From contig PMYM01000101.1 in assembly GCA_003171235.1 (NCBI GenBank), positions 1-39,004 on the forward strand: a stretch of DNA of 39,004 nt, read 5' to 3'. Origin of the DNA: Phycisphaerales bacterium. GTDB lineage: Bacteria; Planctomycetota; Phycisphaerae; SM23-33. Below are positions 1,446 to 27,077 of this stretch, in pieces; positions within the stretch are counted from its first letter, which is position 1; every line of letters starts with the position of its first letter. The notes beneath the pieces were generated by a model. That model was not told the origin of the DNA and ran no database searches. It was given only the letters and a program-made list of their open reading frames with translations. A program made the position numbers and the translations under genes.

Positions 1446-1490
1446 CGCTCTACTCCCCGCCACGGGTTGTGTGGCGTCCTTTGCAGGATG

Positions 1491-2808: not shown

Positions 2809-3252
2809 TTTGATCGACGGGTGAATGTAAGGCGTTTACTCCGGCAAGGACGGCGGCGCTGGGACAAGAATAGAGGAAGTTCTGGCCTGTAGCGCACCCA
2901 ACAGACCCTAGACATCTTGCTTTCTCGGCGTTTCGGACCACTTCTGACGCCGAGCGATTCTTCTTCATGCACTCCTTAAGTCAATGCCATAAAGGTGGGT
3001 AGGAGTAATAGAGCGTTCACCTTGTATTCGCATGTTTAAAAATCTGGAAATCCACCTATTTTCGGCCTAGGCAGGATTTGAGAGACCAGATAGAATAATC
3101 GTTTGCACATGGAGGTTCGAACGAGTCTGAACTGCTCGCTCAGGCGGGTTGTGCGGCTCGCTCAGTTAATAAAAGAAATCGGTTCCAGGGAAGGGGCAAG
3201 ATTTCAACGCTTGACCGGCGCCTTTCCGGTCGCTCAAAAAAGGAAGAAGCAA

Positions 3253-3882
3253 ATGAGAGGATTTGCTATTTGTACGCTCCTGGTATTGGTCGCCAGTTCA
3301 ACGGTGTGGGCGTCTCCCTTAGGTCTGACAACAGGATATCCAGACGTGAACGCCAGCAGCAGCATTCAGACAACCTACGCCGCCTCCACCGACACATTCA
3401 CGGTGACGGGATTCCTGACGCAGTTCACCAAGACTTCCTTGCCGGCCGACAGTCACACCGCCAGCGGCAGCTACACCCTCACGGCGACCGTCAATGATTC
3501 GGGCGCATTGGTCACCGGAATACTGTTAGTTACCGGCTCAGTGAACGACCTGGGGTTTCATTCACCAAGCGATCCGGGGCTGCTCAAGGTAAACCTGACG
3601 CAGTTTGGCTTCTCGGGGAGCCAGAACAGCACTGTTTTTGAGTTCATCGGGAACGTGACAGGCGGGTCTCTGTCGAGCTATTACTCTACCGGTCAGGTTG
3701 GGATTGTACTTAATCCAGGAACGGGCACGAATTTCGGCGGTTCGTTCGCCTCTGATTTTCACGGGGGCTCGGCCGGAGCTGGCACCGTGGACAATTTTGG
3801 CGTTCCAGAGCCGGCTACGCTGGGTTTGCTTCTGGCGGGTGGAGTGGCCCTGCTTGCCCGCCGCCGGCGGAAGAGTTGCTGA
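3253..3882 (+). CDS. PEP-CTERM sorting-domain secreted protein
   Basis: ATG at 3253 preceded by aaaaggaagaagcaa. Signal peptide MRGFAICTLLVLVASSTVWA. C-terminus VPEPATLGLLLAGGVALLARRRRK is a canonical PEP-CTERM (PEP + TM + Arg cluster). Confidence 0.8.
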   Translation: MRGFAICTLLVLVASSTVWASPLGLTTGYPDVNASSSIQTTYAASTDTFTVTGFLTQFTKTSLPADSHTASGSYTLTATVNDSGALVTGILLVTGSVNDLGFHSPSDPGLLKVNLTQFGFSGSQNSTVFEFIGNVTGGSLSSYYSTGQVGIVLNPGTGTNFGGSFASDFHGGSAGAGTVDNFGVPEPATLGLLLAGGVALLARRRRKSC

Positions 3883-4048
3883 GTTTTCATGTCTTGTCAG
3901 TGGACAAGCTGGAGGCGCAATTGAGCCTTCAGACAAGACATCTAGCGTAACGTGGAGATGGATCTTCCCTAATTGACCAAGTGAGCAGCCGCTCTTGTTC
4001 TACAAACACGGAGACGGGCAGAGCGGTTATTACGAAAGCGAGGATGTG

Positions 4049-6041: not shown

Positions 6042-6067
6042 TTGCCGCAGGCGAACCTGTGCGGCAA
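6042..6067. terminator. Stem-loop (8-bp stem TTGCCGCA/TGCGGCAA, 10-nt loop)
   Basis: Seen directly in the sequence. Lies between the adhesin gene and TadG-like paralog 2, and 5 nt past the stop of a possible small minus-strand ORF. No clear U-tract. Confidence 0.3.
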
Positions 6068-6213
6068 GGCGCTTATTCCGGAAGTTCCGGAGGTGCGGGG
6101 AATTCCACTTCCTGGCCGACGCCTTCCTGCGTATATTCGGCCCGGATGGAGTTACGCACGTCGTTGACCGCTCCGCCGGGCACGAACTCCACGCCCATAG
6201 CGGGGCCTTGTCG

Positions 6214-6299
6214 TTTTTTTGGAGAAAATCCTACCTTTTTTCCGAAAAAGAGGATTATGATTCTTGTGTACGGTGACATACCAAAATCTGTATTGGGGC
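6214..6299 (+). promoter_or_regulatory. Putative promoter/5' leader of TadG-like paralog 2
   Basis: T7GGA at 6214..6223, T6 at 6236..6241, GAGGATTATGATTC about 80 nt from the ATG, and GTATTGGGGC at 6290..6299. Same order and similar spacing as upstream of paralog 1. Confidence 0.3.
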
Positions 6300-6337
6300 T
6301 GCCATTAAGGCAGCGCAAGCCCTTGCGGGTGAGAGAC

Positions 6338-7648
6338 ATGAACATGTCTAGAGCGAGAGGCATTGTCAACATCTGGGTGGCTCTCTGTTTCCCGCTGTTT
6401 ATAGCCTTCGCAGGCTTGGCGGTGGACACCGGTTTCTGTGTCGTGTCCACGATGAAGCTGCAGGACGCGGCTGATGCCGCGGCCCTGGCGGGCGCTAGCC
6501 AGGTGTTGTTCAACACCGACACCGCCATCTCCGCCGCCCGCGACGCCACGGTCAACACAGGTAAAGCGAACTACGTGGGCGGGCTGGCCCTGCAACTGAA
6601 CCGGAACGATGGCAACTCCCTGACCGGCGAGGTTGTCGTGGGCCACTACGACCGCGCCACCAGCGCCTTCACTAACGCGCCTGGGGATCTGGCCTACGGG
6701 CGGCGCAATGCCGTCATGGTCAACGCCACACGGGCCGATGGTTCGTCCAATCCCAAACTGCCCGCTTTCTTCGGCCCGATCTTTGGCGTTTCCGGCTATT
6801 CCGCCACCCGCACCGCCATCGCCATGACCGGCAACCTGGAGGGGGATGGCGTCATCGTCCTCAACCCCCACGACCCCGGCGCCTTGCACATGAACGGCAA
6901 TCCGACCCTGACGATCAGTGGCGGGAACCTCCAGGTCAATTCCGACGCCAGCGATGCCGTGTCCACCAATGGGAAGCCTACCATAGACGTGGACCTGGCC
7001 GAGATCACCGGCGGTATCTCCAGTGTTGGTCCTTTCACGGGCGAGGTTCTAACCGGCCAGTCCCGCGTGGAGGACCCGCTGGCGGCCCTGCCGGCGCCGG
7101 CCATTGGGACAGACCTGGGAAAAATCAGGGTGACCGGCAACAAGACGGTCAACCTGCAGCCCGGGTACTATTCCGGCGGCATTACGATAACGAGCGGCTC
7201 GGCCGTCCTGGCCCCGGGCGTTTACGTCCTGGGCGGGGCCGGGTTGGACCTGGGCGGCAACGCCAACCTGGACGCCCAAGGCGTGATGTTCTATATCGTG
7301 GGCAGCGGTGCGGTGAACCTCAAGGGCAACGGCGCTGTCAATATCCGGGCCATGGACCCTAACATTGACCATACGGTCCCGGCCGATATAGCCGAAACCT
7401 ACCAGGGCGTTGCCTTCTTCCAGGCCCGCACCAACACAAATGCATCCTCAATCAGTGGCACCAAGGACACCGTTATCGACGGGACGGTTTACTTTCCCGC
7501 CACCAGCCTGGACCTGGGCGGTAATGCCAGTTGGAAATGCACGCAAGTCATCGCCGATACGGTCAGCGTCTCCGGCAACGGGGACATCATGGTAGATTAC
7601 GACGGCCGGTTCCCAGCCTTGTCTCACGCCATCTTCCTGGTGAAGTAA
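6338..7648 (+). CDS. TadG-like Flp/Tad pilus-assembly family protein (paralog 2)
   Basis: ORF 6059..7648, start trimmed to the ATG at 6338 (MNMSRARGIVNIWVALCFPLFIAFAGLAVDTGF...). Collinear with the 81..1445(-) protein along its whole length, roughly 60-65% identity by eye, down to the shared C-terminus ...SHAIFLV(Q/K). Confidence 0.8.
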   Translation: MNMSRARGIVNIWVALCFPLFIAFAGLAVDTGFCVVSTMKLQDAADAAALAGASQVLFNTDTAISAARDATVNTGKANYVGGLALQLNRNDGNSLTGEVVVGHYDRATSAFTNAPGDLAYGRRNAVMVNATRADGSSNPKLPAFFGPIFGVSGYSATRTAIAMTGNLEGDGVIVLNPHDPGALHMNGNPTLTISGGNLQVNSDASDAVSTNGKPTIDVDLAEITGGISSVGPFTGEVLTGQSRVEDPLAALPAPAIGTDLGKIRVTGNKTVNLQPGYYSGGITITSGSAVLAPGVYVLGGAGLDLGGNANLDAQGVMFYIVGSGAVNLKGNGAVNIRAMDPNIDHTVPADIAETYQGVAFFQARTNTNASSISGTKDTVIDGTVYFPATSLDLGGNASWKCTQVIADTVSVSGNGDIMVDYDGRFPALSHAIFLVK

Positions 7649-11913: not shown

Positions 11914-11987
11914 TACGCCCGCCGCGACTCGAACGCGGAACCTGCGGTTTAGAAGACCGCTGCTCTGTCCACTTGAGCTACGGGCGC
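11914..11987 (-). tRNA. tRNA-Arg (anticodon UCU)
   Basis: Reverse complement GCGCCCG-TA-GCTC-AAGTGGACA-GAGC-A-GCGGT-CTTCTAA-ACCGC-AGGTT-CCGCG-TTCGAGT-CGCGG-CGGGCGT-A folds into a full cloverleaf by hand. It has a 7-bp acceptor with G1.U72, a T-loop TTCGAGT and anticodon loop C-T-TCT-A-A. CCA is not encoded. Confidence 0.9.
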
Positions 11988-13867: not shown

Positions 13868-15457
13868 ATGAAACCAGAAGGAACGATGGCCCGACCGCTG
13901 CTGATGCTGGCGACTGTCCTGGTGGGATTTCTGGCCCTGGCGCCAGCCGCCGGGCCGACGTCGAGGCCTCTTGAGAGTAATGCCTCCCAGCCGGCCAGCC
14001 AGATCGACCTGTTGGTGTTCGCCCAGTTGAAGAAGTTGGGGGTTCAGCCGGGCGAGGTCTGCTCGGACGGCGTTTTTATGCGGCGCGTGTACCTGGACGC
14101 CATCGGCACGCTGCCCACGGAGGAGGAGACCCGCGAGTTCCTGGCCAGTAAAGACCTAGACAAGCGACAAGCGCTGGTCGGTCGCCTGCTCGAGCGGAAG
14201 GAATTCGCCGACTATTGGGCCATGAAGTGGAGCGACCTGTTGCGGGTCAAGGCCGAGTTCCCGATCAACCTTTGGCCTAACGCCGCTCAGGCGTATCACC
14301 ATTGGATTTGGGAGTCCATCAACCAGAACAAGCCTTACGACCGGTTCGTGCGGGAACTGCTGACGGCAAGCGGCAGCAATTTCCGCGTGCCGCCGGTCAA
14401 CTTCTACCGCGCCATTCAGAGCAAGCAGCCGCAGGCGATCGCCCAGGTCGTGGCCCTGACCTTTATGGGCGCGAGAGCGGAGGCCTGGCCGAAGGATCGG
14501 CTGGCGGGCATGGCGGCCTTTTTCGCCCAGGTCGGGTATAAGTCCACCCAGGAGTGGAAAGAGGAGATCGTCTTCCTCGATGTCAGCCAGGCCGCCGCCG
14601 CGGCCACTCAGCCGGCGCCGGTATTTCCCGACGGCACGGCCGCCAGGCTGGTTGCCGGCGGCGATCCGCGCGAGGCCTTCGCCGACTGGCTCATCGACCC
14701 CGGCAACCCGTGGTTTACCCGGAGCATCGTCAATCGCATCTGGTGCTGGTTGCTGGGTCGAGGCATTATTCACGAGCCCGACGACATTCGGCCGGACAAC
14801 CCCCCGAGCAATCCCCAACTGCTGGCCTACCTGGAGCGAGAACTGATCGCCTCGCACTATGATCTCAAGCACATCTATCGCTTGATCCTGACGTCCAGGA
14901 CTTACCAGCTCTCCTGCGCCGCCCCCACGTCCGGGCCGACCAGCGCGGCCAGCTTTGCCCGGTACCAACTGCGCCGGCTGGAGGCCGAGGTGCTCATCGA
15001 CGCCATCTGCCAGATTACCGGCACTACGGAAAAGTACTCCAGTCCGGTGCCGGAGCCCTTTACGTTCATACCTGAAGGCCAGCGGTCAGTCACGCTGCCC
15101 GACGGCAGCATCAGCAGTCCGTTCCTGGAGATGTTCGGCCGCCCACCGCGGGACACGGGCCTGGAGTCTGAGCGGAACAACCGCTCGACGGCCGACCAGC
15201 AACTGCACCTGCTCAACTCCAGCCACATTCAGCGAAAGATCGAGCAAGGCCCCAAACTGCGGGCTCTGATTCAGGGCCGGGCCACTCCGCGCGAAACGAC
15301 CACGCGGCTTTACCTGACGATATTGTCTCGATTCCCGACCGAGGACGAACTCAAGATCGTGGACGCATATTTCAAGGCCGCCGCCAATGGGCGCGACGCG
15401 GCCGTTGACCTGGCGTGGGCCCTGATCAACAGCGACGAGTTTCTGTATCGACATTGA
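13868..15457 (+). CDS. DUF1549/DUF1553 domain protein
   Basis: FMRRVYLDAIGTLPTEEETREFL (DUF1549-type) followed by a DUF1553-type C-terminal half (YQLRRLEAEVLIDAICQITG..., LHLLNSSHI, ALINSDEFLYRH). The alternative start ATG at 13886 has the better RBS (agaaggaacg). No cytochrome-c module. Confidence 0.8.
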   Translation: MKPEGTMARPLLMLATVLVGFLALAPAAGPTSRPLESNASQPASQIDLLVFAQLKKLGVQPGEVCSDGVFMRRVYLDAIGTLPTEEETREFLASKDLDKRQALVGRLLERKEFADYWAMKWSDLLRVKAEFPINLWPNAAQAYHHWIWESINQNKPYDRFVRELLTASGSNFRVPPVNFYRAIQSKQPQAIAQVVALTFMGARAEAWPKDRLAGMAAFFAQVGYKSTQEWKEEIVFLDVSQAAAAATQPAPVFPDGTAARLVAGGDPREAFADWLIDPGNPWFTRSIVNRIWCWLLGRGIIHEPDDIRPDNPPSNPQLLAYLERELIASHYDLKHIYRLILTSRTYQLSCAAPTSGPTSAASFARYQLRRLEAEVLIDAICQITGTTEKYSSPVPEPFTFIPEGQRSVTLPDGSISSPFLEMFGRPPRDTGLESERNNRSTADQQLHLLNSSHIQRKIEQGPKLRALIQGRATPRETTTRLYLTILSRFPTEDELKIVDAYFKAAANGRDAAVDLAWALINSDEFLYRH

Positions 15458-15500
15458 GTCTCCCGCAGGCGACTACGGGCGACGATATGAGCATGACCAT

Positions 15501-16895
15501 ATGAGCAACAAGAATCCTGCGAAATTCATCGCTGACCTGTGTCAGTTGCGAATCCCCCGGCGGGATATGCTGCGCCTGGGGCTGGCCGGGGCGGCGGGCT
15601 GGCTGTTGTCCAGGGGCGACTCTCTGCGCGCCCTGGCCGGCGCTGCCACGCAGGCTAGCACAGGCGTCTCGCCGGTGCTACCAAGAGCCAAGGCCAAGGC
15701 CGTCATCCAGATATGGCTGTGGGGCGGGCCGGCGCAGCTTGACACTTTTGACCCCAAGCCCGATGCCGGCAACGACTATTGCGGCCCGTTGAAAAGCCCA
15801 ATCGCCACCAATGTGGATGGGATTCGCATCTGCGAACTGCTGCCGCAACTGGCCAAGCAGGCCGACAAGTACTCCATAATCCGCAGCATGACTCACGGGG
15901 TGAACGCCCACGAGACGGCCTCCTACATGGTTCAGACCGGCCGGCCGGCGGGGGAGCGGCTGGTGTACCCGTGCGCCGGGGCGGTGGTGTCGGTGTTCAA
16001 AGGCTACGACGCCGGCTACAAGGGGCAGATTCCGCCGTATGTAGTGCTTACGGAACCGCAGGGGCGATTCTCCGAATCAGGCTTCCTGGGAATGCGCTAC
16101 AAGCCCTTTGCCACCGGCGGCGACCCGGCCCAGAGCCGCTTCAACGTCGAGGGCATTGTCGCCCAGGGCATATCAGACCAGCGGCAACTGGAGCGGCGAG
16201 ACCTGCTGGGCAAACTCAATACCCTGGGTCAGGTCATGCCGGGCGATCCCCAGTTGGCGGCCTCGGAGAATGCACGCAAACAGGCCTACGACCTGATGCT
16301 TGGAGAGTCTGCCAAGCTGTTCGACCTTTCGCAGGAGAAAAACGAGCTGCGCGACCTGTACGGCCGCACGACCTTCGGGCAGTCCTGCCTGATGGCCAGG
16401 CGGCTGGTCGAGTGCGGGGTGCCATACGTCACCATCAATTACAAGGGATGGGACACGCACAAGCAGCATTTCCAGGCCATGCGGCGGATGCTGCCCGACA
16501 TGGACAAGGGCTTTGCGACCTTGCTGCAGGATTTGTCAGACCGCGGCCTGCTGGACAGCACCATCGTCTGGTGGGGCGGCGAATTCGGCCGGACACCTAA
16601 GATCCAGTGGGAGGCGCCCTGGAACGGTGGGCGCGGCCACTGGGGCAACGCTTTTTCGGTCGTCGTTGCCGGCGGCGGGTTCAAAGGTGGGCGGGTCGTC
16701 GGCTCCACCGACGCCCGCGGCGAGGAAGTGAAAGACCGGCCGGTATACCCGGTTGATCTCATTGCCAGCATGTACGAGTTGCTGGGCATAGATCCCGACG
16801 GGCAACTGCCCAATGCCCAGGGCCTGTCCGTCCGGGTAACGCCCTCCAAGGCCGACGGGGTCAAGATGGGCGGGCGGCTGAAGGAGATCATGTGA
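15501..16895 (+). CDS. DUF1501 domain protein (sulfatase/phosphatase-like fold, Tat signal)
   Basis: Twin-arginine motif IPRRDMLRLGLAGAAG. WGGPAQLDTFDPKP and WWGGEFGRTPKI are typical DUF1501 signatures. It follows the DUF1549/1553 gene, as is usual for this pair. Confidence 0.8.
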   Translation: MSNKNPAKFIADLCQLRIPRRDMLRLGLAGAAGWLLSRGDSLRALAGAATQASTGVSPVLPRAKAKAVIQIWLWGGPAQLDTFDPKPDAGNDYCGPLKSPIATNVDGIRICELLPQLAKQADKYSIIRSMTHGVNAHETASYMVQTGRPAGERLVYPCAGAVVSVFKGYDAGYKGQIPPYVVLTEPQGRFSESGFLGMRYKPFATGGDPAQSRFNVEGIVAQGISDQRQLERRDLLGKLNTLGQVMPGDPQLAASENARKQAYDLMLGESAKLFDLSQEKNELRDLYGRTTFGQSCLMARRLVECGVPYVTINYKGWDTHKQHFQAMRRMLPDMDKGFATLLQDLSDRGLLDSTIVWWGGEFGRTPKIQWEAPWNGGRGHWGNAFSVVVAGGGFKGGRVVGSTDARGEEVKDRPVYPVDLIASMYELLGIDPDGQLPNAQGLSVRVTPSKADGVKMGGRLKEIM

Positions 16896-19192
16896 GCGCC
16901 GTGGCATTTGTGCGAACATGGCGATTGCCCGTTGTAGTGGCGGTTCTTCTGGCCGTTGTGGCGGGTGCCCGCGCCCAGGCGATCCCGCCGCGGATAGGCT
17001 ATGTCTATCCCGCCGGAGGCAGGCAGGGCGATACGTTTGAGGTCATGGTGGGGGGGCAGTCTCTGGACGCCGCAGGCGAGGCGTATGTTGACGGCGGCGG
17101 AATTCAAGCCACGATGCTGGAGTACATCAAGCCTTTGACGCCGGCCCAGGCCGGCCAGTTGCGGGAGCGGATTCAGGAGTTGCAGCAGAAGCCCCGGGAC
17201 GCCGCCGTGACCGATGAGATCGCCCAGATTCGGGCCAAGCTGTTTGCCTTTGCTAACCGCCCCGGCCCGGCCATTGCCGAAACCGTCAAGCTACGGATCG
17301 CCATAGCGGCCAACGCCTCGCTCAATCAGCATGAGTTGCGGCTGAAGACGCCGGCGGGGCTGTCCAATCCGCTGGTGTTCTGCGTGGGGCAACTGCCCGA
17401 GTTGTCCGCCAAGACCGCCGGGATCATCGATCCCAGCGACTTCAAGGGCCCGCGTTTGCTGGGCCAGCCAAGCACCACCCCGCAGCGCGAGATGGCCGTT
17501 ACGTTGCCGGCCGTTGTCAACGGCCAGATCATGCCCGGCGGCGTGGATCGCTACCGCTTCCAGGCGCGCAAGGGACAGCGGCTGGTCGCGGCCGTCAATG
17601 CCAGGGAGTTGATCCCGTACCTGGCCGACGCCGTTCCCGGCTGGTTTCAGGCCGCCCTGACGCTGTACGACGCCGACGGCAACGCGTTGGCCTACGCCGA
17701 CCATTTCCAGTTCCACCCCGACCCGGTGCTGTATTCTGAAATTCCCAAAGATGGCCAGTACGTGCTGGCCATCCAGGACTCGCTCTATCGGGGCCGCCAG
17801 GACTTCGTATACCGCATCACTCTGGGCGAGTTGCCGTACCTGGCCGGCATCTTCCCCCTGGGCGGGCAGGCCGGCCAACCCGCGACGGTCGAGCTGTCAG
17901 GCTGGAATCTCTTGCAAACGAAGCTCGAGCTGGACGCCAAAGACAACATCCTTGGCCTCCGGCTGCTGGGTACGCGAAACGGGGAATGGCTGTCCAACCT
18001 CACGCCTTTTGAGTCAGGCGACCTGCCGGAATGTGTGGCCAAGAAGACCGCCCACTCGGCGGAGACCGCCCAGGCGGTAACGCTTCCAGTGGTGGTAAAT
18101 GGGCGCATCGAACAGCCGGGGCAGTGGGACGTTTTCCGTTTCGATGGCCGCGCCGGACAGGAGATCGTCGCCCAGGTCGATGCACGACGGCTAGGCTCCG
18201 CCTTGGACTCGGTGTTGCGGCTGACCGACGCCAACGGGCGGGAACTGGCGTTCAACGACGATCACGAGGACAAGGAACTGGGGTTGGTTACGCACCAGGC
18301 GGATTCGTACATCCGCTGCCGGCTGCCTGCCGACGGGACATATTACCTCCACCTTGGCGATGCTCAGCGGCAGGGCGGCAGCCAATGCGCCTACCGGCTG
18401 CGCATCAGCACTCCCCGGCCGGATTTCGCCCTGCGGCTGGCGCCGTCCAGCCTTAATGTCCGTCCCGGCGCCAGCGTCGTCTGCACCGCGTATGTCCTGC
18501 GAAAGGACGGCTTCGCCGGGGCAATAGACTTATCCCTCAAAGACGCGCCAACCGGCTTCACGCTGGCCGGCGGACGGGTGCCGGAGAATCAGGACACGGT
18601 GCCTATCACGCTAACGGCCCCGACCTCGCCCACCCAGGAGCCGGTCAGCCTGACCATTCAGGGTCGGGCAAAGATCCAGGGAGTGGACGTCGTTCGCACG
18701 GCCGTGCCGGCCGAGGATATGATGCAGGCCTTTGCTTATCGACACCTGGTTGCGGCCAAGGGGCTGTACGTCGATGTGGCCGGTCGATACATGCCGCGGG
18801 CTACCGGAGGAATCATAAGTTCGCTGCCGGTTAAGCTCCCGGCCGGGGGCGCTGCACGAGTACAGACGGCAGTCTCCACCAGCACGCTGGCCGGCACAAT
18901 CGGGTTTGAGCTGGATCAGCCGCCGGAGGGAATCGCCATCCAGAGCGTGTCGTCGATTGCCCGGGGCACGGAGATCATGCTCAAAGCCGACGCGGCCAAG
19001 GTAAAGCCCGGCCTAAAGGGCAACCTGATTGTCAGCATGTTCCTGACGCCGCGACCCACCACGTCAGCGACCTCGCGGCCGCAGACGAACTCGCGGCGAA
19101 TGCTGGTGGGCGTGCTGCCGGCCATTCCGTTCGAGATCGCCAGCGAGGGGCAGGCGTCGAGCCGCCCCGCCGACGGCCCCGGTGCCAAGTGA
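16892..19192 (+). CDS. Secreted multi-domain protein with pre-peptidase C-terminal (PPC)-like modules
   Basis: GTG start at 16892 overlaps the upstream TGA (atGTGA), and AAGGAG lies 6 nt upstream. Signal peptide ...VVAVLLAVVAGARAQA. Two PPC-like modules (DRYRFQARKGQRLVAAV...LTLYDADGNALAYAD and DVFRFDGRAGQEIVAQV...LRLTDANGRELAFNDD...GTYYLHL). Confidence 0.7.
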   Translation: MSAVAFVRTWRLPVVVAVLLAVVAGARAQAIPPRIGYVYPAGGRQGDTFEVMVGGQSLDAAGEAYVDGGGIQATMLEYIKPLTPAQAGQLRERIQELQQKPRDAAVTDEIAQIRAKLFAFANRPGPAIAETVKLRIAIAANASLNQHELRLKTPAGLSNPLVFCVGQLPELSAKTAGIIDPSDFKGPRLLGQPSTTPQREMAVTLPAVVNGQIMPGGVDRYRFQARKGQRLVAAVNARELIPYLADAVPGWFQAALTLYDADGNALAYADHFQFHPDPVLYSEIPKDGQYVLAIQDSLYRGRQDFVYRITLGELPYLAGIFPLGGQAGQPATVELSGWNLLQTKLELDAKDNILGLRLLGTRNGEWLSNLTPFESGDLPECVAKKTAHSAETAQAVTLPVVVNGRIEQPGQWDVFRFDGRAGQEIVAQVDARRLGSALDSVLRLTDANGRELAFNDDHEDKELGLVTHQADSYIRCRLPADGTYYLHLGDAQRQGGSQCAYRLRISTPRPDFALRLAPSSLNVRPGASVVCTAYVLRKDGFAGAIDLSLKDAPTGFTLAGGRVPENQDTVPITLTAPTSPTQEPVSLTIQGRAKIQGVDVVRTAVPAEDMMQAFAYRHLVAAKGLYVDVAGRYMPRATGGIISSLPVKLPAGGAARVQTAVSTSTLAGTIGFELDQPPEGIAIQSVSSIARGTEIMLKADAAKVKPGLKGNLIVSMFLTPRPTTSATSRPQTNSRRMLVGVLPAIPFEIASEGQASSRPADGPGAK

Positions 19193-19288: not shown

Positions 19289-20401
19289 ATGCAGTTGGAA
19301 TCTCGGAGTATTACCGGGTCGAAGGCAGTGGAACTCTACTTGACCGCCATCCCCGGCCCAGCCGTGGGGGCAGACGGCGAGGCTGAGCAGGTTTTTGGCG
19401 CGATCGTCGGCGAAGCCGCCCGATGCGGGGGCAGGGTGTGCCAACTGAGGGCCTTCGTGCCGGAGGGTCGGCTGGAAGCCTATCAACGGGCATGGCAAGC
19501 GGCTTTTGGGCAGGGGCAGGCCGAATGCCCCTGCAACTGGCTTCAGGCCGGTCCGTCTGTTCCCGGAGGCGTGCAGGCGCACGTGATTGCCGCGCCCGTC
19601 GAGTGGAAGCCCCTGCGCGATCGCCGGGGCGCCCAGGCGGGCTGGTTGTGCAGTAATGGCAAGACTAGTTGGGCCATCGTTGGCGGGCTATGCCTGCCAC
19701 GATCAGCGGATGACGCGGCTTCCACCCAGGAGGCGTTCGAGGCGGCCGAAGCCCTGCTGGCCCAGGCCGGTATGGGCCTGGGAGATGTGGCGCGAACATG
19801 GTTTTTCCTGGACGATATCCTTGGCTGGTATGACCGGTTCAACGTTGGCCGGAGTCAAGTCTTCCGCCGTCGCGGTTTGCTGGGGCCTGCCCAGGGCGGC
19901 GGCGTGAACGTTCCGGCCAGCACCGGCATCGGCGTTTCCCCGGCCGGTGGCGCCCGGCTGGCGATGGACTTGCTGGCTGTCCGCGGCGAGAAAGGGTGCG
20001 TTCTTCGCCATCCCGCGGCCGGCAAGCAGCGATGCGCGTATGAATACGGGTCCGCCTTCGCCCGCTCGGCCGAGGCTGCCACCCTCGGCGGGCGGACAGT
20101 GTATGTCTCCGGCACGGCCGCCATCGATGTCCAGGGCAAGTCGTGTTTTGCAGGCGACGCCGGCAGCCAGATCAGAATGACCCTGGAGAACGTGCTGGCG
20201 GTTCTGTCGGACATGCGCTGCGGCGCGGAAAACGTGGTGCAGGCCATGGCCTACTGCAAAACGCCGGCCGTCGCCGCCCGGTTCATAGAGAGCTTCCAGC
20301 GTACGCTTTCCTGGCCGTGGGTTGTGGTCGTCGGCGACGTCTGCCGAGCCGATCTTGTTTTCGAGGCGGAGGTGACGGCCTGCCAGCCGGCTAACGGCTA
20401 G
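19289..20401 (+). CDS. Chorismatase-like protein (FkbO/Hyg5/XanB2 family, tandem RidA/YjgF-like folds)
   Basis: VARTWFFLDDILGWYDRFNVGRSQVF...NVPASTGIG...CAYEYGSAFARSAEA...VYVSGTAAIDVQGKSCFAGDAGSQIRMTLENVLAVL follows the remembered family pattern R.WNY..DI....RY..FN.GR..(A)F...PA...G...Y.Y...F.R....(F/Y)(I/V)SGTA(S/A)I.G......D...Q...TL.N. Confidence 0.6.
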   Translation: MQLESRSITGSKAVELYLTAIPGPAVGADGEAEQVFGAIVGEAARCGGRVCQLRAFVPEGRLEAYQRAWQAAFGQGQAECPCNWLQAGPSVPGGVQAHVIAAPVEWKPLRDRRGAQAGWLCSNGKTSWAIVGGLCLPRSADDAASTQEAFEAAEALLAQAGMGLGDVARTWFFLDDILGWYDRFNVGRSQVFRRRGLLGPAQGGGVNVPASTGIGVSPAGGARLAMDLLAVRGEKGCVLRHPAAGKQRCAYEYGSAFARSAEAATLGGRTVYVSGTAAIDVQGKSCFAGDAGSQIRMTLENVLAVLSDMRCGAENVVQAMAYCKTPAVAARFIESFQRTLSWPWVVVVGDVCRADLVFEAEVTACQPANG

Positions 20402-20843: not shown

Positions 20844-23800
20844 ATGATGGATCGCAAGCTTGGTGAAAAGAGTATGAGCAGTTCCGGACAGGAGTGGGCC
20901 AGGGAAGGTACACGGCCGGTGCTGGCGTCCCATCTGGCAGCCTTTGCGGCTTTAGTGCATCGATATCGAGGGGAGGATGACCTGCGCCTGTGGGTTACCC
21001 ACCAGGCCGATCCCAGCCCGGATGGGCTATCCAGGCCTGCCCAACCATCGCTGCAGAGAATATCACTAGGCGACGATCCCACTGTTGAGGACCTGCTGAG
21101 CCGCGCGGGCTGCGTTCTGGCCGCGATTGGCGGCCCGGCCATTCATCTCGAACTGATGGGTCGTATCCATGTGACCTGGGAAGATGGGGATGGCCAGGTT
21201 GAACCGTCCGGGGCCACGCGGGGTTTCACCCTGTTGCTGGAACTGTCGCCCGCCGGCCAACTGTCAGCGAAGTTGTTCCATCATGATCGTCTTTGCCCGG
21301 GCACGACGCCGCTCCTGATGGACGGCCATTTTCGCACGCTTCTGGAAAGCTTGGCCGGCGACCGAACGGCCCAAGTCAGCCGGCTGCCCATGATTACTCC
21401 AGATGAGCGCCACACAATCCTGGAGCGCTGGAGCGGCCCCGCACATGATCCCGAGTTGTGCCGTGACGAACTGCTGCACGAGCTGTTCGAGGCACAGGTT
21501 GATGCCCGGCCGGGGCAAATTGCCCTGGAGTGTGCCGGCGAGCAAATGACTTATGCCCAGTTGGACGTGCGGTCCAATCAACTGGCCTGTCGCTTGCGTT
21601 CAGGTGGCATGCGGGCCGGGGACTTTGTGGGCATCCATCTGCCCCGTTCAGCGGACGTCGTTATCGCCATACTGGGGGTGCTCAAGGCCGGGGGGGCGTA
21701 CGTGCCGCTGGATAGCGACTATCCCGCCGACCGCGTGCAGTACATCTTGAACGACTGCAAGGTCCAATCGCTGATCACGGTGTCCAGCCTGGCGGCCCGG
21801 CTGGAGCCCGGGACGTGGTCCGTTGTGCTGATGGATAAGCAGCCGGACAAATCACCCAGCCAGCCGTCGCAACGTGTTGCTTGCCGCGCCGTTGGCGTCA
21901 TCCCTGACAACGCATGTTATGTCATTTATACCTCCGGGTCCACCGGCCGACCGAAGGGCGTGCTGATCACTCATCGCAACGCCTGCAACCTTGTTCGCGG
22001 CGAGGGGCGGATATTCGGCGTTGTGCCGGATGACCGGGTGTTCCAAGGCTTCTCTGTCGCCTTCGACGCATCGGTAGAGGAAATCTGGCTGGCGCTTTTT
22101 GCCGGGGCGACGCTGGTGGTAGGCACTGCCGATATGGTGCACGCCGGCCCAGCCTTGGCGGGTTTGCTGGCTCGAGCCAAGGTCACTGTGTTTTCCACAG
22201 TGCCCACGCTGCTCTCAACATTTGAGGAGGACATCCCTAGCCTGCGTCTGCTGATCCTGGGCGGCGAGGCCTGCACGCAGGACCTGGTCCGGCGCTGGTG
22301 CCGGCCGGGGCTGCGCGTGGTGAATACGTACGGGCCCACCGAAGCCACGGTAATTGCCACTTACGCGGATTGCGAACCGGACAAGCCGGTCACCATCGGA
22401 CGGGCTGCGCCTAACTATCGCACATATATCCTCGACCGCCATCTGCAGCCTGTGCCGGTGGGGGTATGCGGCGAGCTGCACATCGGCGGCGTGGGCGTTG
22501 CGGCCGGATACCTGGGCCGCCCGGAGCTCACGGCGGATAGATTCGTTCCCAATCCCTTCATGAACGGCCAGGGCGGCCGGCTGTACAAGACCGGCGACTT
22601 GGTGCGGTATTGCCTGGACGGGCAGATCGAGTTTGTCGGCCGGCTGGATACGCAGATCAAGCTGCGCGGTTTTCGCATCGAACTGTCGGAGATTGAGAGC
22701 GTGCTGCTGCGGTGTCCGGCTGTCCAGGCTGCCGTGACGGTCGTGCGCGAAGATTCTCCAGGTCTGCAGCAATTGGTCGGCTACGTCGTGCCCCGGCAGG
22801 GCCAGGACGTGGATGAGGATGCCATTAAGGTGATCCTCCGCGCCCAGTTGCCGGTGTTCATGGTGCCGGGGCGCCTTGAAATCGTGGACAAGTTGCCCAC
22901 GCTGCCTAGCGGCAAGGTGGACCGCAAGCGTCTGCCGGCGCCGCGCCCTCGGCAAGTCCAGCCAGCCGAGAACGGCGGGGCTTTCGTTGGCGACTTGGAG
23001 CCGCAACTGGGGGCGACTTGGCGGGAGCTGTTTGCGCCGACGGCGGTGGGGCCGCTGGACGATTTCTTCAAGGATCTGGGAGGACACTCCCTGCTGGCGG
23101 CACGCATGGTTTCCCGGATGCGGCAACGCCCCGAGTTCTGCGACCTGTCCGTCCTGGACGTTTACAACTTCCCGACCGTGCGAACTCTGGCAGCCGAACT
23201 GCGGAGCCGGCATGAAGCCGTCTCCCGAATTCCTGGCGCCGGCGCCAGTCCCCTCCCCGTGCGCCCGACCTCCCGAGCGGGCTATGGGCTGTGCGTCCTG
23301 GCCCAGACGGTGAGCTTGTGGGTTATCGCAGGCCTGTTCTCCATGCAATGGCTGACGCCATACTTGGCGTATTGTTGGCTCATCGAGCGCGGCATGGGGG
23401 TCATCGATGCCATCGCCGTCTCCCTGGCAGTGCTGCTGGCGTTTTATCCACTGCTGATGGCCGCGTCTATTGCAGTCAAGTGGGCGGTAATCGGCCGCTA
23501 TAAGGCCGGGGACTACCCCTTGTGGGGCTGGTACTACCTGCGTTGGTGGTTTGTCAATCAGGTTCTGTCGGTAGTCCCGATCGACTACCTGGCGGGCACG
23601 CCCCTGTTATCGTTGTATTACCGGCTCATGGGCGCTCGCATTGGGCACAACGTGTACTTCGGCGCAGATAACATCAGCGCTTTCGACCTGGTAAGCGTGG
23701 GCGACGACTCAAGTCTAGGCATCGAAACTATGCTGATGGGTTACTCACTAGAGGGGGGGCGCCTGCGGTTGGGACCGGTGACGGTGGGCCGCGGCTGCTT

Positions 23801-26222
23801 TATCGGCGCCCGGTCAGTGCTACGGCCCTATACCGTGATGGAGGATGGCGCCCGGCTGGAGGATCTGAGCCTGCTGCCCGAAGGCGGAAGGATTCCGCGC
23901 GGTCAGACGTGGATCGGTTCTCCGGCCAGGCCGATTTGGCAAACGAAGAGGCAGACTGAAGCCATTCCTCCAGCCGTTCGCCCGGGCCGGCTGCGGAGAG
24001 CGGCCTTTGCCATGCCGTATGTCCTGGGGGTGCTGCTCGTGCCGGCAGTGTGCCTGATCGCCCTGTTCCCCGGCTTGATCTGGATCAACTACGTCACGAG
24101 GGAGTACGGCGGCTATTGGTTCCTGTTATTGGCGCCGGCGGTAACCCTAGCCTTCGTGCTGCTCATGGCGTTAGAGATCGTGCTGGTCAAATGGTTGCTG
24201 CTGGGACGGGTTCGGCCTGGCACCTATGACGTGCACGGCTGGTTCTATTTTCGCAAGTGGTTTGTCGACCAGTTAATGGACCTGAGTCTGGACTTGCTTG
24301 GTCCGCTGTACGCGACACTGTACTTGGCCCCGTGGTATCGACTGTTGGGCGCCAAGCTGGGGCGCCGCGCCGAGGTCTCCACGGCAAGCGCCACTTCTCC
24401 CGACCTCTTGGCCATTGACGACGGCAGCTTCATAGCCGACGCGGTCTGCCTGGGCGCGTCGCGCGTGGAGGGCGGCCGGGTAACCCTTGCCCCAACTCGC
24501 ATAGGCAAACGGGCTTTCGTCGGAAATAGCGCGTTTGTGCCGGCTGGAGCGGTGATTGGCGACGATGTCCTGATTGGTTGCATGTCCGCCCCGCCACAGT
24601 CGCCAGACGATGCCGCCCGCGCCGGCACTTCCTGGCTGGGCTCGCCCGCGTTTTTCCTGCCCCAGCGACAGGAAAGCACTGCCTTTTCGGCCGAACAGAC
24701 ATTTCGCCCGTCGCGTCGATTGGTGCTGCTGCGGGCGTTCATAGAGTTCTTCCGCATCACTCTTCCTATCACGTGCTTTGTGGCCTTGACCAGCCTGCTT
24801 ATCACGGTCGTAATTGACTTGCGGCAGGTTTCGACGCCGTACCTGGTGCTGGCGTTTCCGGCCTTGTACCTGGGCTTCGGTGTAGCGGCGGCCTTGGTAG
24901 TGGTGGCCTGCAAGTGGCTGCTTATGGGCCGATATCGGCCGGCGGAGAAGCCCCTTTGGAGTTCGTTCGTCTGGCGGACGGAACTAGTCACGGCCATGCA
25001 CGAGCACCTGGCCGACCCGTTCCTGGTGATGCTGCTGCTGGGCACGCCGTGGGTGTGTTGGTTCTTCCGGCTGCTGGGGGCGAAGGTAGGCCGGCGCGTG
25101 GTCATGGAGACCACGTACCTGACTGAATTCGATCTGATAACAATTGGCGACCGGGCTGTATTGGGCAGCGAGTGCACGATTCAGACCCACTTGTTCGAGG
25201 ACCGGGTCATGAAGATGTCCACTATCGATATTGGCAATGATTGCACGGTTGGCGCCGGTTCGATTGTGCTGTATGACACGCGTATGGAGAGCCGCTCGGC
25301 TTTGGGAGACCTCTCGCTCCTAATGAAGGGCGAGGATTTGCCGGCGGACACGCAATGGGAGGGTACGCCGGCCCGTCTGCTGCCTGCAAGAGAAGTGGCA
25401 GGTGGCCGGCAGCCGATGCCAGATCCGGGTGATCATCGAGAACCCGCAAAGGCCGGCCCTGCTGCACCCGAGGTGAGTTTCCTGTTCTCACTTGACCAGT
25501 ACGACGCGCACCCAACAGGCCCCTGGGTATGGGTGCTCGACTGCAATCACGCGGGCGGCAATGTCGGCCTGCCGTTAGCTGATACATCCGGCGCATTGCT
25601 TCAGGGCGAAAAAGAGCCGCCATCGGAAGAAACTCATCTGTCTGGCAGGGATCGTGCGCTTGGGGTCGATCGACTGCCGGCCCGAGACCTATTGCGCCGC
25701 CTGATCGGCATGCACCTTGGGCTCCGGCCCGAAGAGGTTGCGCTGGACGTGAATCCGCAGGGAGGGCTGCTGCTGGCTGCCGAGCGCATGCCCGCTTGTT
25801 CCATGGCGGAGATGCTGCAGATAAACATTGCACATTCCCAAGACGTGCTGGTTGCCGGTGTGAGTCTTACCGGCCGGATCGGTGTGGACGTTGAGGTGAT
25901 GCGACCGGAAATCGACCTGACCACCCTGCCCGGCGAGTGCTTCACCGTGTGGGAACGCCAGCATCTGGAGACGCTGTCGGCCGACAAGCGAGTCATTGGC
26001 TTCTACACTCTCTGGACGGCAAAGGAGGCATTCGTTAAGGCGATTGGGCATGGCCTGTTCTTTGGCCTGAATCAGGTCGAGTTGACACTGGAGCCGGATG
26101 GCTCTGCCCGCCTGGCCCGCGTCAACGGCCGCAGCGATTTGGCCCGGGCCTGGCGAATTGTTCACCGGGTCGTGAACGTTGGCGGCCTGCCCGCGGTTGT
26201 TGCCGTGGCCTTGGGAGAGTGA
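20844..26222 (+). CDS. Membrane-embedded single-module NRPS of the Pls/PosA (poly-amino-acid synthetase) type with fused C-terminal PPTase
   Basis: 1800-aa ORF (20820..26222). The first ATGs are at 20844, 20847 and 20874, so the start is uncertain. See the domain sub-features: C-lobe remnant, A, PCP, 3x[TM pair + hexapeptide repeats], Sfp-type PPTase. Confidence 0.85.
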   Translation: MMDRKLGEKSMSSSGQEWAREGTRPVLASHLAAFAALVHRYRGEDDLRLWVTHQADPSPDGLSRPAQPSLQRISLGDDPTVEDLLSRAGCVLAAIGGPAIHLELMGRIHVTWEDGDGQVEPSGATRGFTLLLELSPAGQLSAKLFHHDRLCPGTTPLLMDGHFRTLLESLAGDRTAQVSRLPMITPDERHTILERWSGPAHDPELCRDELLHELFEAQVDARPGQIALECAGEQMTYAQLDVRSNQLACRLRSGGMRAGDFVGIHLPRSADVVIAILGVLKAGGAYVPLDSDYPADRVQYILNDCKVQSLITVSSLAARLEPGTWSVVLMDKQPDKSPSQPSQRVACRAVGVIPDNACYVIYTSGSTGRPKGVLITHRNACNLVRGEGRIFGVVPDDRVFQGFSVAFDASVEEIWLALFAGATLVVGTADMVHAGPALAGLLARAKVTVFSTVPTLLSTFEEDIPSLRLLILGGEACTQDLVRRWCRPGLRVVNTYGPTEATVIATYADCEPDKPVTIGRAAPNYRTYILDRHLQPVPVGVCGELHIGGVGVAAGYLGRPELTADRFVPNPFMNGQGGRLYKTGDLVRYCLDGQIEFVGRLDTQIKLRGFRIELSEIESVLLRCPAVQAAVTVVREDSPGLQQLVGYVVPRQGQDVDEDAIKVILRAQLPVFMVPGRLEIVDKLPTLPSGKVDRKRLPAPRPRQVQPAENGGAFVGDLEPQLGATWRELFAPTAVGPLDDFFKDLGGHSLLAARMVSRMRQRPEFCDLSVLDVYNFPTVRTLAAELRSRHEAVSRIPGAGASPLPVRPTSRAGYGLCVLAQTVSLWVIAGLFSMQWLTPYLAYCWLIERGMGVIDAIAVSLAVLLAFYPLLMAASIAVKWAVIGRYKAGDYPLWGWYYLRWWFVNQVLSVVPIDYLAGTPLLSLYYRLMGARIGHNVYFGADNISAFDLVSVGDDSSLGIETMLMGYSLEGGRLRLGPVTVGRGCFIGARSVLRPYTVMEDGARLEDLSLLPEGGRIPRGQTWIGSPARPIWQTKRQTEAIPPAVRPGRLRRAAFAMPYVLGVLLVPAVCLIALFPGLIWINYVTREYGGYWFLLLAPAVTLAFVLLMALEIVLVKWLLLGRVRPGTYDVHGWFYFRKWFVDQLMDLSLDLLGPLYATLYLAPWYRLLGAKLGRRAEVSTASATSPDLLAIDDGSFIADAVCLGASRVEGGRVTLAPTRIGKRAFVGNSAFVPAGAVIGDDVLIGCMSAPPQSPDDAARAGTSWLGSPAFFLPQRQESTAFSAEQTFRPSRRLVLLRAFIEFFRITLPITCFVALTSLLITVVIDLRQVSTPYLVLAFPALYLGFGVAAALVVVACKWLLMGRYRPAEKPLWSSFVWRTELVTAMHEHLADPFLVMLLLGTPWVCWFFRLLGAKVGRRVVMETTYLTEFDLITIGDRAVLGSECTIQTHLFEDRVMKMSTIDIGNDCTVGAGSIVLYDTRMESRSALGDLSLLMKGEDLPADTQWEGTPARLLPAREVAGGRQPMPDPGDHREPAKAGPAAPEVSFLFSLDQYDAHPTGPWVWVLDCNHAGGNVGLPLADTSGALLQGEKEPPSEETHLSGRDRALGVDRLPARDLLRRLIGMHLGLRPEEVALDVNPQGGLLLAAERMPACSMAEMLQINIAHSQDVLVAGVSLTGRIGVDVEVMRPEIDLTTLPGECFTVWERQHLETLSADKRVIGFYTLWTAKEAFVKAIGHGLFFGLNQVELTLEPDGSARLARVNGRSDLARAWRIVHRVVNVGGLPAVVAVALGE
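20907..21434 (+). other. Domain: C-terminal lobe of a condensation domain (remnant; no HHxxxDG region)
   Basis: aa ~30-205: SHLAAFAALVHRYRGEDDL..., DPTVEDLLSRAGCVLAAI..., FTLLLELSPAGQLSAKLFHHDRLCPGTTPLLMDGHFRTLLESLAGDRTAQVSRLPMITPDERHTILERWSG. This is the typical end of a C domain plus the C-A linker. The N-terminal lobe is absent. Confidence 0.5.
21462..22934 (+). other. Domain: adenylation (A) domain
   Basis: Core motifs are present in order: MTYAQLD, LKAGGAYVPLD, YVIYTSGSTGRPKG, FDASV, NTYGPTE, GELHIGGVGVAAGY, YKTGD, GRLDTQIKLRGFRIEL, LPSGKVDRK. Confidence 0.9.
22992..23204 (+). other. Domain: peptidyl carrier protein (thiolation) domain
   Basis: FFKDLGGHSLLAARM contains the phosphopantetheine-attachment Ser (aa 757, codon tcc at 23088..23090). 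Confidence 0.85.
23277..25385 (+). other. Domain block: three tandem [TM pair + left-handed beta-helix (hexapeptide)] repeats, Pls/PosA 'terminal domain' type
   Basis: Each repeat carries two hydrophobic helices, then VKWAVIGRYKAGDYPLWGWYYLRWW / VKWLLLGRVRPGTYDVHGWFYFRKW / CKWLLMGRYRPAEKPLWSSFVWRTE. Hexapeptide-like runs follow (e.g. VSVGDDSSLGIETML, VTVGRGCFIGARSVL). Each repeat closes with QTWIGSPARP / TSWLGSPAFF / TQWEGTPARL. Confidence 0.8.
25482..26219 (+). other. Domain: Sfp-type 4'-phosphopantetheinyl transferase fused in frame
   Basis: INIAHSQD (cf. FNISHS), RIGVDVEVM (cf. (V/I)G(V/I)D(I/L)E) and FYTLWTAKEAFVKAIGHG (cf. W(S/T)xKE(A/S)xxKxxG). Preceded by a Pro-rich linker, with no stop codon between it and the third repeat. 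Confidence 0.75.
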
Positions 26223-26225
26223 TTG

Positions 26226-27077
26226 ATGAGTGTGGTGTCTGGATGCGAAAAGAGCCCTTGGCGCCGCGCGGCTTGGTGCTTGTTGCTGGCGATTGCCATG
26301 GTCGGTACTGGTTGCCGCAAGACCAAGCCCGACGCCAAGGTTGAAGTACAGCAAAACCACCGGGAGATGGTCGTTCATCTGGGCCACAATGTCACTATGA
26401 GGCTGATGCTTCTTCCTGCCGGGCAGTTCAAGATGGGTTCGCCTGACGCCGAAGAAGGCCGCGGGGAGGACGAAGGGCCGGTGCGGCTCGTTACCCTCAG
26501 CAAACCTTTCTACATCGCCGTCACCGAGGTCACACAGGACCAGTACGAGGCGGTAATGAGCGACAATCCCAGCACCTTCGAGGGCGGCGCCAACCCGGTT
26601 GAGGAGGTTTCCTGGGAAAAGGCGGTCGCGTTCTGCGAGAAGCTGTCCTCCATATCGGGCAAGACCTTCCGTCTGCCCACTGAGGCCGAATGGGAGTACG
26701 CCTGCCGGGCGGGCACGCGGACGGCCTATTGCCGTGGCGACAGGCAAGAGGATCTCATGAAGGTCGGTTGGTTTTGCTTTGATGCGACGGTGGTCAAAAC
26801 AACGCGGCCGGCAGCCAGTCTGCAAGCCAATCCCTGGGGTCTATACGACATGCATGGCAATATCTGGGAGTGGTGTTCCGACTGGTATGCCGAGGACTAC
26901 TACGCCGCCCGTAACAATCAATTAGATCCAATAGGCCCAACTACAGGAACGGAACGGATCCTGCGCGGGGGCTCCTGGTCCGACGACCCCGAAGACTGCC
27001 GCTCTGCCTATCGCGAGAGCCAGCCGCCGGACTATGCGGACGACGATATCGGGTTCCGAATTGTCTGTCAGGATTAA
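26226..27077 (+). CDS. FGE/SUMF1-family (formylglycine-generating-enzyme-like) lipoprotein
   Basis: ATG 3 nt after the NRPS TGA (gagTGAttgATG). Signal with lipobox LLAIAMVGTGC. RLPTEAEWEYACRAG, GLYDMHGNIWEWCSDWY and RGGSW are classic FGE-sulfatase-domain motifs. Confidence 0.8.
   Translation: MSVVSGCEKSPWRRAAWCLLLAIAMVGTGCRKTKPDAKVEVQQNHREMVVHLGHNVTMRLMLLPAGQFKMGSPDAEEGRGEDEGPVRLVTLSKPFYIAVTEVTQDQYEAVMSDNPSTFEGGANPVEEVSWEKAVAFCEKLSSISGKTFRLPTEAEWEYACRAGTRTAYCRGDRQEDLMKVGWFCFDATVVKTTRPAASLQANPWGLYDMHGNIWEWCSDWYAEDYYAARNNQLDPIGPTTGTERILRGGSWSDDPEDCRSAYRESQPPDYADDDIGFRIVCQD

Follow-up and report, generated by a model that had tools for sequence, protein, structure and literature searches.

The contig PMYM01000101.1 of a Phycisphaerales bacterium (assembly GCA_003171235.1), of which positions 1 to 39,004 of the forward strand form the window analyzed here, carries a gene for a 1792-residue protein that is assigned to the Pls/PosA family of non-ribosomal peptide synthetases (NRPSs), with a 4'-phosphopantetheinyl transferase (PPTase) at its end. 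The gene is read as encoding a homopoly(amino acid) synthetase that consists of one polypeptide, is anchored in the membrane, and has the enzyme that activates it fused to its end, and this reading is given a probability of about 0.7. By analogy with characterized relatives the protein is most likely a self-priming epsilon-poly-lysine synthetase, where both the product and the self-priming are inferred. The Pls/PosA family is already known, also from Planctomycetota, and so are other synthases with an integrated PPTase. Fusion of a PPTase to a Pls/PosA-type synthetase is rare, recurrent, and real, and no paper that describes a fused PPTase or a vestigial condensation lobe in a Pls-type enzyme was found in a search outside of which most subscription journals lie.

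The open reading frame (ORF) runs on the plus strand from position 20820 (TTG) or 20844 (ATG) to 26222 without interruption, and the ATG start gives the 1792-residue product. The synthetase consists, in order, of a vestigial C-terminal lobe of a condensation (C) domain, an adenylation (A) domain, a thiolation (T) domain, also called peptidyl carrier protein (PCP), a membrane polymerization domain, and an Sfp-type PPTase (Table 1). Pfam searches of the whole protein returned one match each to AMP-binding, AMP-binding_C, and PP-binding, in that order, and no match to Thioesterase or Condensation, and a search of the N-terminal piece alone to E 10 did not return them either. Judged from these searches, the synthetase has no functional condensation or thioesterase domain. 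The original prediction, made from the DNA letters alone, had divided the protein into the same five parts, with nothing but a condensation domain's C-terminal lobe in first place, a complete A domain followed by a PCP with the GGHSL motif, a PPTase at the end, and neither a canonical C domain nor a thioesterase, and it expected matches to AMP-binding, PP-binding, TIGR02353, and ACPS in that order as well as about six or more transmembrane (TM) helices in three pairs. Its coordinates and motifs proved accurate, and Pfam, NCBIfam, and a profile of N-terminal extensions recovered all of the parts and the whole series of matches in the order that it had given.

The family assignment comes from the membrane domain. 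The NCBIfam model TIGR02353 ("Pls/PosA family non-ribosomal peptide synthetase") matches residues 820-1510 over profile positions 2-695 of 695 and scores 692.3 bits, far above the curated cut-off of 423.1 bits. By this profile the gene product belongs to the Pls/PosA family, as had been proposed, and residues 820-1520 belong to its terminal-domain family. In a hydropathy scan, six strongly hydrophobic helices stand out, arranged as three pairs. Identity among the three repeats is 29-32%, and they have the motifs KW..GR, YRLLGAK.G, and W.G(S/T)PA in common. The AlphaFold2 (AF2) model of residues 700-1792 (pLDDT, the predicted local confidence score, of 86.5; predicted TM score, pTM, of 0.77) features long helix pairs and beta-helix units, and its fold matches in the PDB, found with Foldseek, are Sfp-type PPTases and hexapeptide acyltransferases. 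The possibility that the repeats are ordinary sugar or acyl hexapeptide transferases was rejected, since the Pfam Hexapep matches are short and TIGR02353 spans all 700 residues. Neither sequence nor fold searches of the PDB (fold library to April 2026) found a solved structure like the whole membrane domain, and it was stated in 2023 that no Pls-type terminal-domain structure had been solved (PMC10522769). The original prediction pointed out that the triple repeat is internal in this protein, which holds because the PPTase follows it, and took a terminal position to be the rule of the family, which does not hold: among the homologues, which are designated here by P numbers, P0256 features a DUF418 domain (residues 1577-1738) after the Pls/PosA terminal domain and P0316 features an acyltransferase-like HGSNAT_cat domain (residues 1395-1596), both of them membrane domains. 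The name "terminal" therefore does not hold for every member of the family, and the sequences of these two members hint at further uncharacterized variants that are possibly polymer-modifying.

The A domain is matched by Pfam AMP-binding at residues 215-557 (E 1.7e-85) and AMP-binding_C at residues 616-691, by TIGR01733 at 2e-137, and by the A domain of Pls in the PDB (7wew) at E 1.8e-90. The ten Stachelhaus positions, anchored on the FDxS, NxYGPTE, and GK(V)DR motifs, give the specificity code DAESIGTVIK (residues 408, 409, 412, 451, 471, 473, 495, 503, 504, and 691). Supplementary Table 2 of the PosA paper lists the code DAESIGTVVK for the lysine-activating Pls of Streptomyces albulus, DMEHNGTVSK for the ornithine-activating PosA, and codes beginning with DFE for the DAP and DAB enzymes (PMC10522769). 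Code positions 1 and 3, occupied by Asp and Glu, are described as a conserved cation-binding pair, and position 2 as a chain-length selector that is Ala for lysine (PMC10522769). The pair that marks a pocket for cationic amino acids is present here as Asp408 and Glu412, and L-lysine is the predicted substrate of the A domain. An alignment of 121 proteins, the query and its 120 closest relatives, features the code DAESIGTVIK in 104 and the exact Pls code in 12, and this near-uniform lysine-type code makes L-lysine the predicted substrate for the whole clade. The T domain follows the A domain, and its phosphopantetheine attachment residue is Ser749 in a DLGGHSL motif (nt 23088-23090).

The C-terminal domain is joined to the membrane domain by a linker whose length and sequence differ among the fused homologues. 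The Pfam family PF01648 (ACPS) matches residues 1678-1771 with E 9e-16 and 58-62 bits against a cut-off of 25. The C-terminal 282 residues match HetI (5.5e-26), AcpT, and AusB, and in the PDB they match Sfp (1qr0, E 3.7e-6) and human AASDHPPT. Foldseek places the Sfp-PCP complex 4mrt_A first (E 8e-10, target-normalized TM score, TMt, of 0.66, root-mean-square deviation of 2.2 Å over 179 columns), and it also finds human AASDHPPT over 192-258 columns. The key residues are His1664 in NIAHS, Asp1682 and Glu1684 in GVDVE, and Glu1728 and Lys1732 in WTAKEAFVK. These motifs, which start at residues 1661, 1680, and 1724, align in HMMER with NISHS, GIDIE, and WSMKESFIK of Sfp, so that the five residues are equivalent to Sfp H90, D107, E109, E151, and K155. 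The WxxKEAxxK subtype of Sfp-type PPTases, to which the domain belongs, has been described (PMC6042109).

The N-terminal extension of 210 residues includes neither the N-lobe nor the HHxxxDG motif of a condensation domain. A search of the first 215 residues alone against Pfam gave no match. A profile built from 12 homologous extensions matches condensation-domain structures, with Txo2 (6p1j, residues 250-472) as the best match at E 5.9e-12 and several free-standing C domains next over residues ~245-450. Searched as a single sequence, the extension matches Txo2, McyB, and Txo1 where their C domain ends and the C-A linker follows (E 4e-6 to 7e-4). The N-terminus of a distant family member, P0294, matches positions 241-455 of the 456 in Pfam Condensation at 26 bits, which is below the 30.6-bit gathering cut-off, and the sole match of the extension alone in a large protein database is a 290-residue protein with a Pfam Condensation domain. 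The AF2 model of residues 1-700 has a mean pLDDT of 90.4, with values of 85-97 across residues 23-172. Its best PDB matches are C-A didomains over 730-756 columns, compared with ~500 columns for A-only structures, and EntF matches it with a query-normalized TM score (TMq) of 0.78-0.80. Sequence profile and predicted fold thus bear out the C-terminal-lobe-only reading of the N-terminus. A condensation domain in the sense of PF00668 has two lobes and the HHxxxDG motif, and here only the equivalent of residues ~250-472 and the linker are found. Since the HHxxxDG-bearing N-lobe is missing, the extension cannot work as a condensation domain; going by its residues it is a catalytically dead remnant of the C-terminal lobe, and in the model this remnant lies against the A domain in the manner of the C-lobe of a C-A-T module. 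Most likely it serves as a structural platform and is left over from an elongation module from which the enzyme descends.

The mechanism proposed for the synthetase is drawn from the biochemistry of Pls and PosA (PMC10522769, and Yamanaka 2008 as cited there). The PPTase domain would move 4'-phosphopantetheine from coenzyme A (CoA) to Ser749 and thereby convert the T domain from its apo to its holo form, and this priming could take place within one polypeptide or between neighboring copies. With an even number of membrane helices, the PPTase would share its side of the membrane with the A and T domains, from where the topology suggests that it can reach Ser749. The A domain would adenylate L-lysine, the substrate predicted from its code, and load it onto the T domain as a thioester. 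The terminal domain is expected to be a pseudo-trimer of three left-handed beta-helix units on six membrane helices, in which, by homology with Pls and PosA, the side-chain amine of a free lysine or of a free growing chain would attack the thioester. Repeated cycles would yield isopeptide-linked poly-lysine that may be released at the membrane. A bolder reading, put forward tentatively and on balance doubtful, is that this sub-lineage has an autonomous one-polypeptide polycation factory with no need of a host PPTase, that the C-lobe is more than a relic, and that the product is possibly not epsilon-poly-L-lysine. The remnant could serve the T domain or the fused PPTase as a platform for docking or regulation, and the product could differ from epsilon-poly-L-lysine in linkage, length, or acceptor.

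Several observations weigh against a self-priming poly-lysine synthetase. Those that concern the PPTase bear on the alternative that the fused domain is the cell's general Sfp-type PPTase, fused by chance, which mainly primes other carriers in trans, or an inactive domain in decay beside another PPTase that would prime the T domain; this alternative is judged unlikely. The N-terminal half of the domain is divergent, so that Pfam and HMMER align only the second half, from Sfp residue 85, and the AF2 model features a low-confidence, disordered insertion of 33 residues in that half (residues 1578-1610). The fused proteins read GGL (the query), GRL, or GRP at the spot that we take to correspond to the Gly-Lys-Pro CoA-contact motif of Sfp-type enzymes, in a half that is not aligned to Sfp. 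CoA binding is for these reasons not assured. Additionally, the PPTase of P0072 has lost its catalytic His (FSQSS for NIAHS) and Glu (GVDLT for GVDVE), and from its sequence the domain appears to be decaying in at least this one lineage; most Pls/PosA members have neither a fused nor an adjacent PPTase. However, the sequence-alignable catalytic residues are intact in the query and are kept in seven of the nine fused proteins that were aligned (P0003 has Arg at the position of the catalytic His), and the predicted fold is close to that of Sfp. The PPTase genes that lie directly 3' of the synthetase in three unfused relatives, described below, also argue for a dedicated partnership.

The remaining points against the self-priming poly-lysine reading concern the product, and they bear on the alternative that the terminal domain does not make long epsilon-poly-lysine, and instead uses another acceptor in the membrane or envelope, makes short oligomers, or forms another linkage. 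A Stachelhaus code predicts the substrate and not the linkage or the chain length. The terminal domains of PosA and Pls are only ~20% identical (PMC10522769), and all of the characterized family members come from other phyla, with none in the Planctomycetota/Verrucomicrobiota clade, so that the chemistry is not readable from homology alone. The soluble units have the left-handed beta-helix fold of acyltransferases, the product of PosA consists only of 7-12-mers (PMC10522769), and some family members are found inside hybrid lipid clusters (PMC13291983). This alternative is nevertheless quite unlikely: all of the characterized TIGR02353 proteins make homopolymers, the match to that model is full-length and far above the cut-off, the specificity code is one residue away from that of Pls, and the gene stands alone with no conserved partner to supply an acceptor.

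The large protein database contains thousands of relatives, which mostly measure 1320-1350 residues, align with ~73% of the query, and are built on the plain A-T-terminal plan. Many of them, including one with a fused PPTase, are already named Pls/PosA by NCBI, and these come from Planctomycetaceae, Pirellulales, Gemmataceae, and Verrucomicrobiota. Additionally, the PosA paper lists a homologue from Singulisphaera (PMC10522769), and antiSMASH finds one non-alpha poly-amino-acid (NAPAA) cluster in the planctomycete Singulisphaera acidiphila. The original prediction had presented the family as unusual for a planctomycete-like genome. Its remark that characterized members are absent from the phylum stands, but the novelty was overstated: Planctomycetota and Verrucomicrobiota abound in homologues.

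Among the 120 closest relatives, both extra parts, the N-terminal extension and the PPTase, occur in P0002, P0003, P0004, P0006, and P0007. The PPTase alone occurs in P0005, from a metagenome-assembled genome (MAG) of Phycisphaerae, and in P0072. The closest relative, P0001, has the PPTase and no front extension in the called protein, whose N-terminus is possibly under-called. The N-terminal extension alone occurs in P0009, P0012, P0052, P0053, P0085, and P0092. There are thus at least eight other fused proteins, and they come from independent ENA, NCBI, JGI, and Logan assemblies. With the last repeat and the PPTase as the query, 1.84 billion representatives at 50% identity were searched exhaustively with HMMER, and local checks with hidden Markov models followed; 87 of the best 150 representatives are full-length. 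One of the 87 is fused (P0007), three fused fragments were found besides (P0185, P0229, and P0323), and a homologous N-terminal extension is present in seven of the 87 (~8%). A peptide-pattern scan of species-representative genomes for the PPTase, which is no measure of taxonomic spread, returned two fused loci, both in Holophagaceae, among the matches listed, which are mostly generic Sfp-type PPTases. These two loci, in MAGs of Holophagaceae (Acidobacteriota), are single ORFs of 1542 and 1536 residues with the order A, T, terminal domain, and ACPS. A neighbor-joining tree of the A-T-terminal core, drawn with no support values, groups the query with P0001-P0007 and places P0072 and the Holophagaceae proteins outside of this subtree. 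When the large database was searched with the PPTase piece alone, stand-alone PPTases were returned and the fused P0001-P0007 were not, and a search with the N-terminal extension alone missed these proteins as well, although they are 50-65% identical to the query overall. The misses are probably due to a limit of the word index, and when a sub-domain alone is the query an empty result therefore says little about absence.

The neighborhoods of unfused relatives point to the origin of the fusion. In all three of the unfused relatives with an N-terminal extension that were examined, a stand-alone ACPS gene lies directly downstream of the synthetase gene on the same strand. The gap to this PPTase gene is 456 nt for P0053 and 154 nt for P0012, and in P0009 the PPTase gene overlaps the synthetase stop by 11 nt. 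The downstream PPTase of P0012 is a homologue of the fused domain (E 8e-20), with 27% identity across 199 residues. In P0008 and P0010, two relatives of the plain A-T-terminal plan, the downstream slot is taken by a DUF386 gene. The adjacent PPTase genes point to gene fusion, and most likely the fusion came about when the synthetase gene was joined to a dedicated PPTase gene that lay immediately downstream. Separate genes, genes with an 11-nt overlap, and one ORF form a stepwise series that illustrates cleanly how integrated PPTases come into being. The chance that the ORF is itself a chimera or read-through of a normal Pls gene and a neighboring PPTase gene, an outcome that would have undone the original prediction, is close to nil: genes that are adjacent in relatives, and in one case overlap, could be fused by a single base error, but the identical 1792-residue protein with the same ATG is called on a separate 25-kb JGI metagenome contig (3300037087, Ga0334814_001697, found by exact-sequence look-up), P0001 is 65% identical across the fusion junction, and the fusion is kept in assemblies from four sources and in another phylum.

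The epsilon-poly-L-lysine synthetase Pls of S. albulus (Yamanaka et al. 2008), which is about 1,319 residues long, resembles the present synthetase in its A-T unit, in the TIGR02353 domain behind it with its three tandem units and six TM helices, in being encoded by a stand-alone gene, and in nine of the ten positions of its specificity code. It differs in that it has neither a C-lobe remnant nor a fused PPTase, relies on a separate PPTase, and comes from another phylum. The delta-poly-L-ornithine synthetase PosA of Acinetobacter baumannii (PMC10522769; PDB 8G95-8G98) is alike in family and domain logic, and its published AlphaFold model, with three beta-helices on six bent helices (PMC10522769), matches the AF2 model obtained here. 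The A-core of PosA matches the query model with a TMt of 0.92-0.93. Where the PosA code has Met at position 2, the present code has the lysine-type Ala, and neither a fused PPTase nor an N-terminal extension is described in the PosA paper (PMC10522769). A C-terminal PPTase on the synthase that it presumably primes is also found in the fungal fatty acid synthase (FAS) alpha subunit and in the bacterial type I polyketide synthases (PKSs) SACE_2343 and SAV_7361, and the PPTases of the latter two are Sfp-type, as in the query (PMC6042109). Unlike the query these are FAS or PKS proteins and not Pls-type NRPS-like enzymes, and the PPTase of the query sits after a membrane domain. Reports of bacterial integrated PPTases have been called "quite few" (PMC6042109).

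For the N-terminal remnant, the nearest likeness is the N-terminal adenylation-activating (ADA) domain of fungal Lys2-type alpha-aminoadipate reductases, reportedly described by Kalb et al., which is also a truncated, non-catalytic condensation-like piece before an A domain. The Lys2 model TIGR03443 aligns with the synthetase from residue 30. The Lys2-type enzymes feature a reductase after the A domain, compared with a membrane polymerase here, and the two extensions are likened by description only. The presence of a dead C-lobe before the A domain in ~8% of the representatives suggests that the family originated from a normal NRPS elongation module, and if the bolder reading above holds, the remnant would be direct evidence that an ordinary C-A-T elongation module was the ancestor of Pls-type enzymes. 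The cationic polymers that Pls-type enzymes produce are used as food preservatives and carriers. Heterologous production with Pls usually needs a compatible PPTase, and a natural self-primed version would be a convenient, portable single gene. The large Planctomycetota/Verrucomicrobiota clade has an almost uniform lysine code, and no polymer has been reported from these phyla in searchable papers.

Table 1. Parts of the synthetase gene, its neighbors in the window, and the stand-alone PPTase genes of three unfused relatives (the last three rows give positions on loci L086-L088).
Feature	Residues (aa)	Position (nt)	Strand	Evidence or remark
Whole synthetase gene, Pls/PosA family	1-1792	20844..26222	+	Open ORF, domain matches, identical JGI product
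Truncated condensation C-terminal lobe and C-A linker	1-210	20844..21473	+	Extension profile, AF2 model
Adenylation domain	211-700	21474..22943	+	AMP-binding 1.7e-85, AMP-binding_C, TIGR01733
Thiolation (PCP) domain	718-795	22995..23228	+	PP-binding PF00550 (aa 732-785)
Terminal-domain repeat 1: TM1 814-834, TM2 849-883, left-handed beta-helix unit to WIGSPA	810-1045	23271..23978	+	TIGR02353, hydropathy, repeat alignment, AF2
Terminal-domain repeat 2: TM3 1052-1085, TM4 1088-1123, beta-helix unit to WLGSPA	1046-1295	23979..24728	+	TIGR02353, hydropathy, repeat alignment, AF2; Pfam Hexapep 1218-1245
Terminal-domain repeat 3: TM5 1302-1327, TM6 1332-1363, beta-helix unit to WEGTPA	1296-1512	24729..25379	+	TIGR02353, hydropathy, repeat alignment, AF2; Pfam Hexapep_2 1432-1475
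Pro/Ala/Gly-rich linker, predicted disordered	1513-1543	25380..25472	+	AF2 pLDDT <50 over aa 1517-1538 (model residues 818-839)
Sfp-type PPTase, WxxKEAxxK subtype	1544-1792	25473..26219	+	PF01648, HetI and Sfp alignments, Foldseek
FGE-sulfatase-domain protein, signal/lipoprotein-like N-terminus		26226..27077	+	PF03781 4.9e-53; starts 4 nt after synthetase stop
370-aa protein: weak FkbO/Hyg5 chorismatase-like N-terminal domain and RidA/L-PSP domain		19289-20401	+	440 nt upstream of synthetase
PSCyt2/PSD1 (DUF1549/DUF1553) gene, DUF1501 gene, 766-aa PPC pre-peptidase-domain ORF		13868-19192	+	Upstream
Surface/pilus-type group: two TadE/G-like, PEP-CTERM, SdrD B-like/SpaA-fold repeat protein		81-1523 (-), 3103-3882 (+), 3995-5833 (+), 6059-7648 (+)		
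Stand-alone PPTase gene of P0012		L086 7058-7687		
Stand-alone PPTase gene of P0053		L087 9022-9801		
Stand-alone PPTase gene of P0009		L088 4874-5611		

The window contains no other NRPS genes, and no MbtH or transporter genes lie beside the ORF. A conserved gene cluster around the synthetase was considered and rejected: the neighbors in P0005, P0006, P0002, P0008, and P0010 are unrelated, and only P0001 has the FGE-sulfatase gene in common with the query. This gene lies 3' of the synthetase gene in P0001 and not in P0005, P0006, or P0002, and in the window it is probably co-transcribed with the synthetase gene, to which it is linked by position alone. The pls and posA genes are stand-alone genes (PMC10522769), and the lack of conserved context and of other NRPS genes in the window matches this arrangement. 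No FkbO/Hyg5-RidA gene was found beside the synthetase in relatives. In the 440-nt gap upstream of the ORF no lysine riboswitch or other RNA element was matched by Rfam at E up to 1, and promoter and terminator scans gave results at chance level.

Farther upstream, the 766-residue PPC ORF overlaps the DUF1501 gene by 4 nt. The pairing of DUF1549/DUF1553 with DUF1501 is characteristic of Planctomycetota. Overall, the genes of the window are those expected of a planctomycete, which agrees with the Phycisphaerae MAG that P0005 comes from. The FGE-sulfatase gene is followed by a CBM/GH10-like gene on the opposite strand, and the remaining genes of the window are Tad-like, PEP-CTERM, SdrD-like, GH20, and hydrolase genes. 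A single tRNA gene (11914-11987, minus strand) is the sole Rfam match above the gathering score in the whole window.

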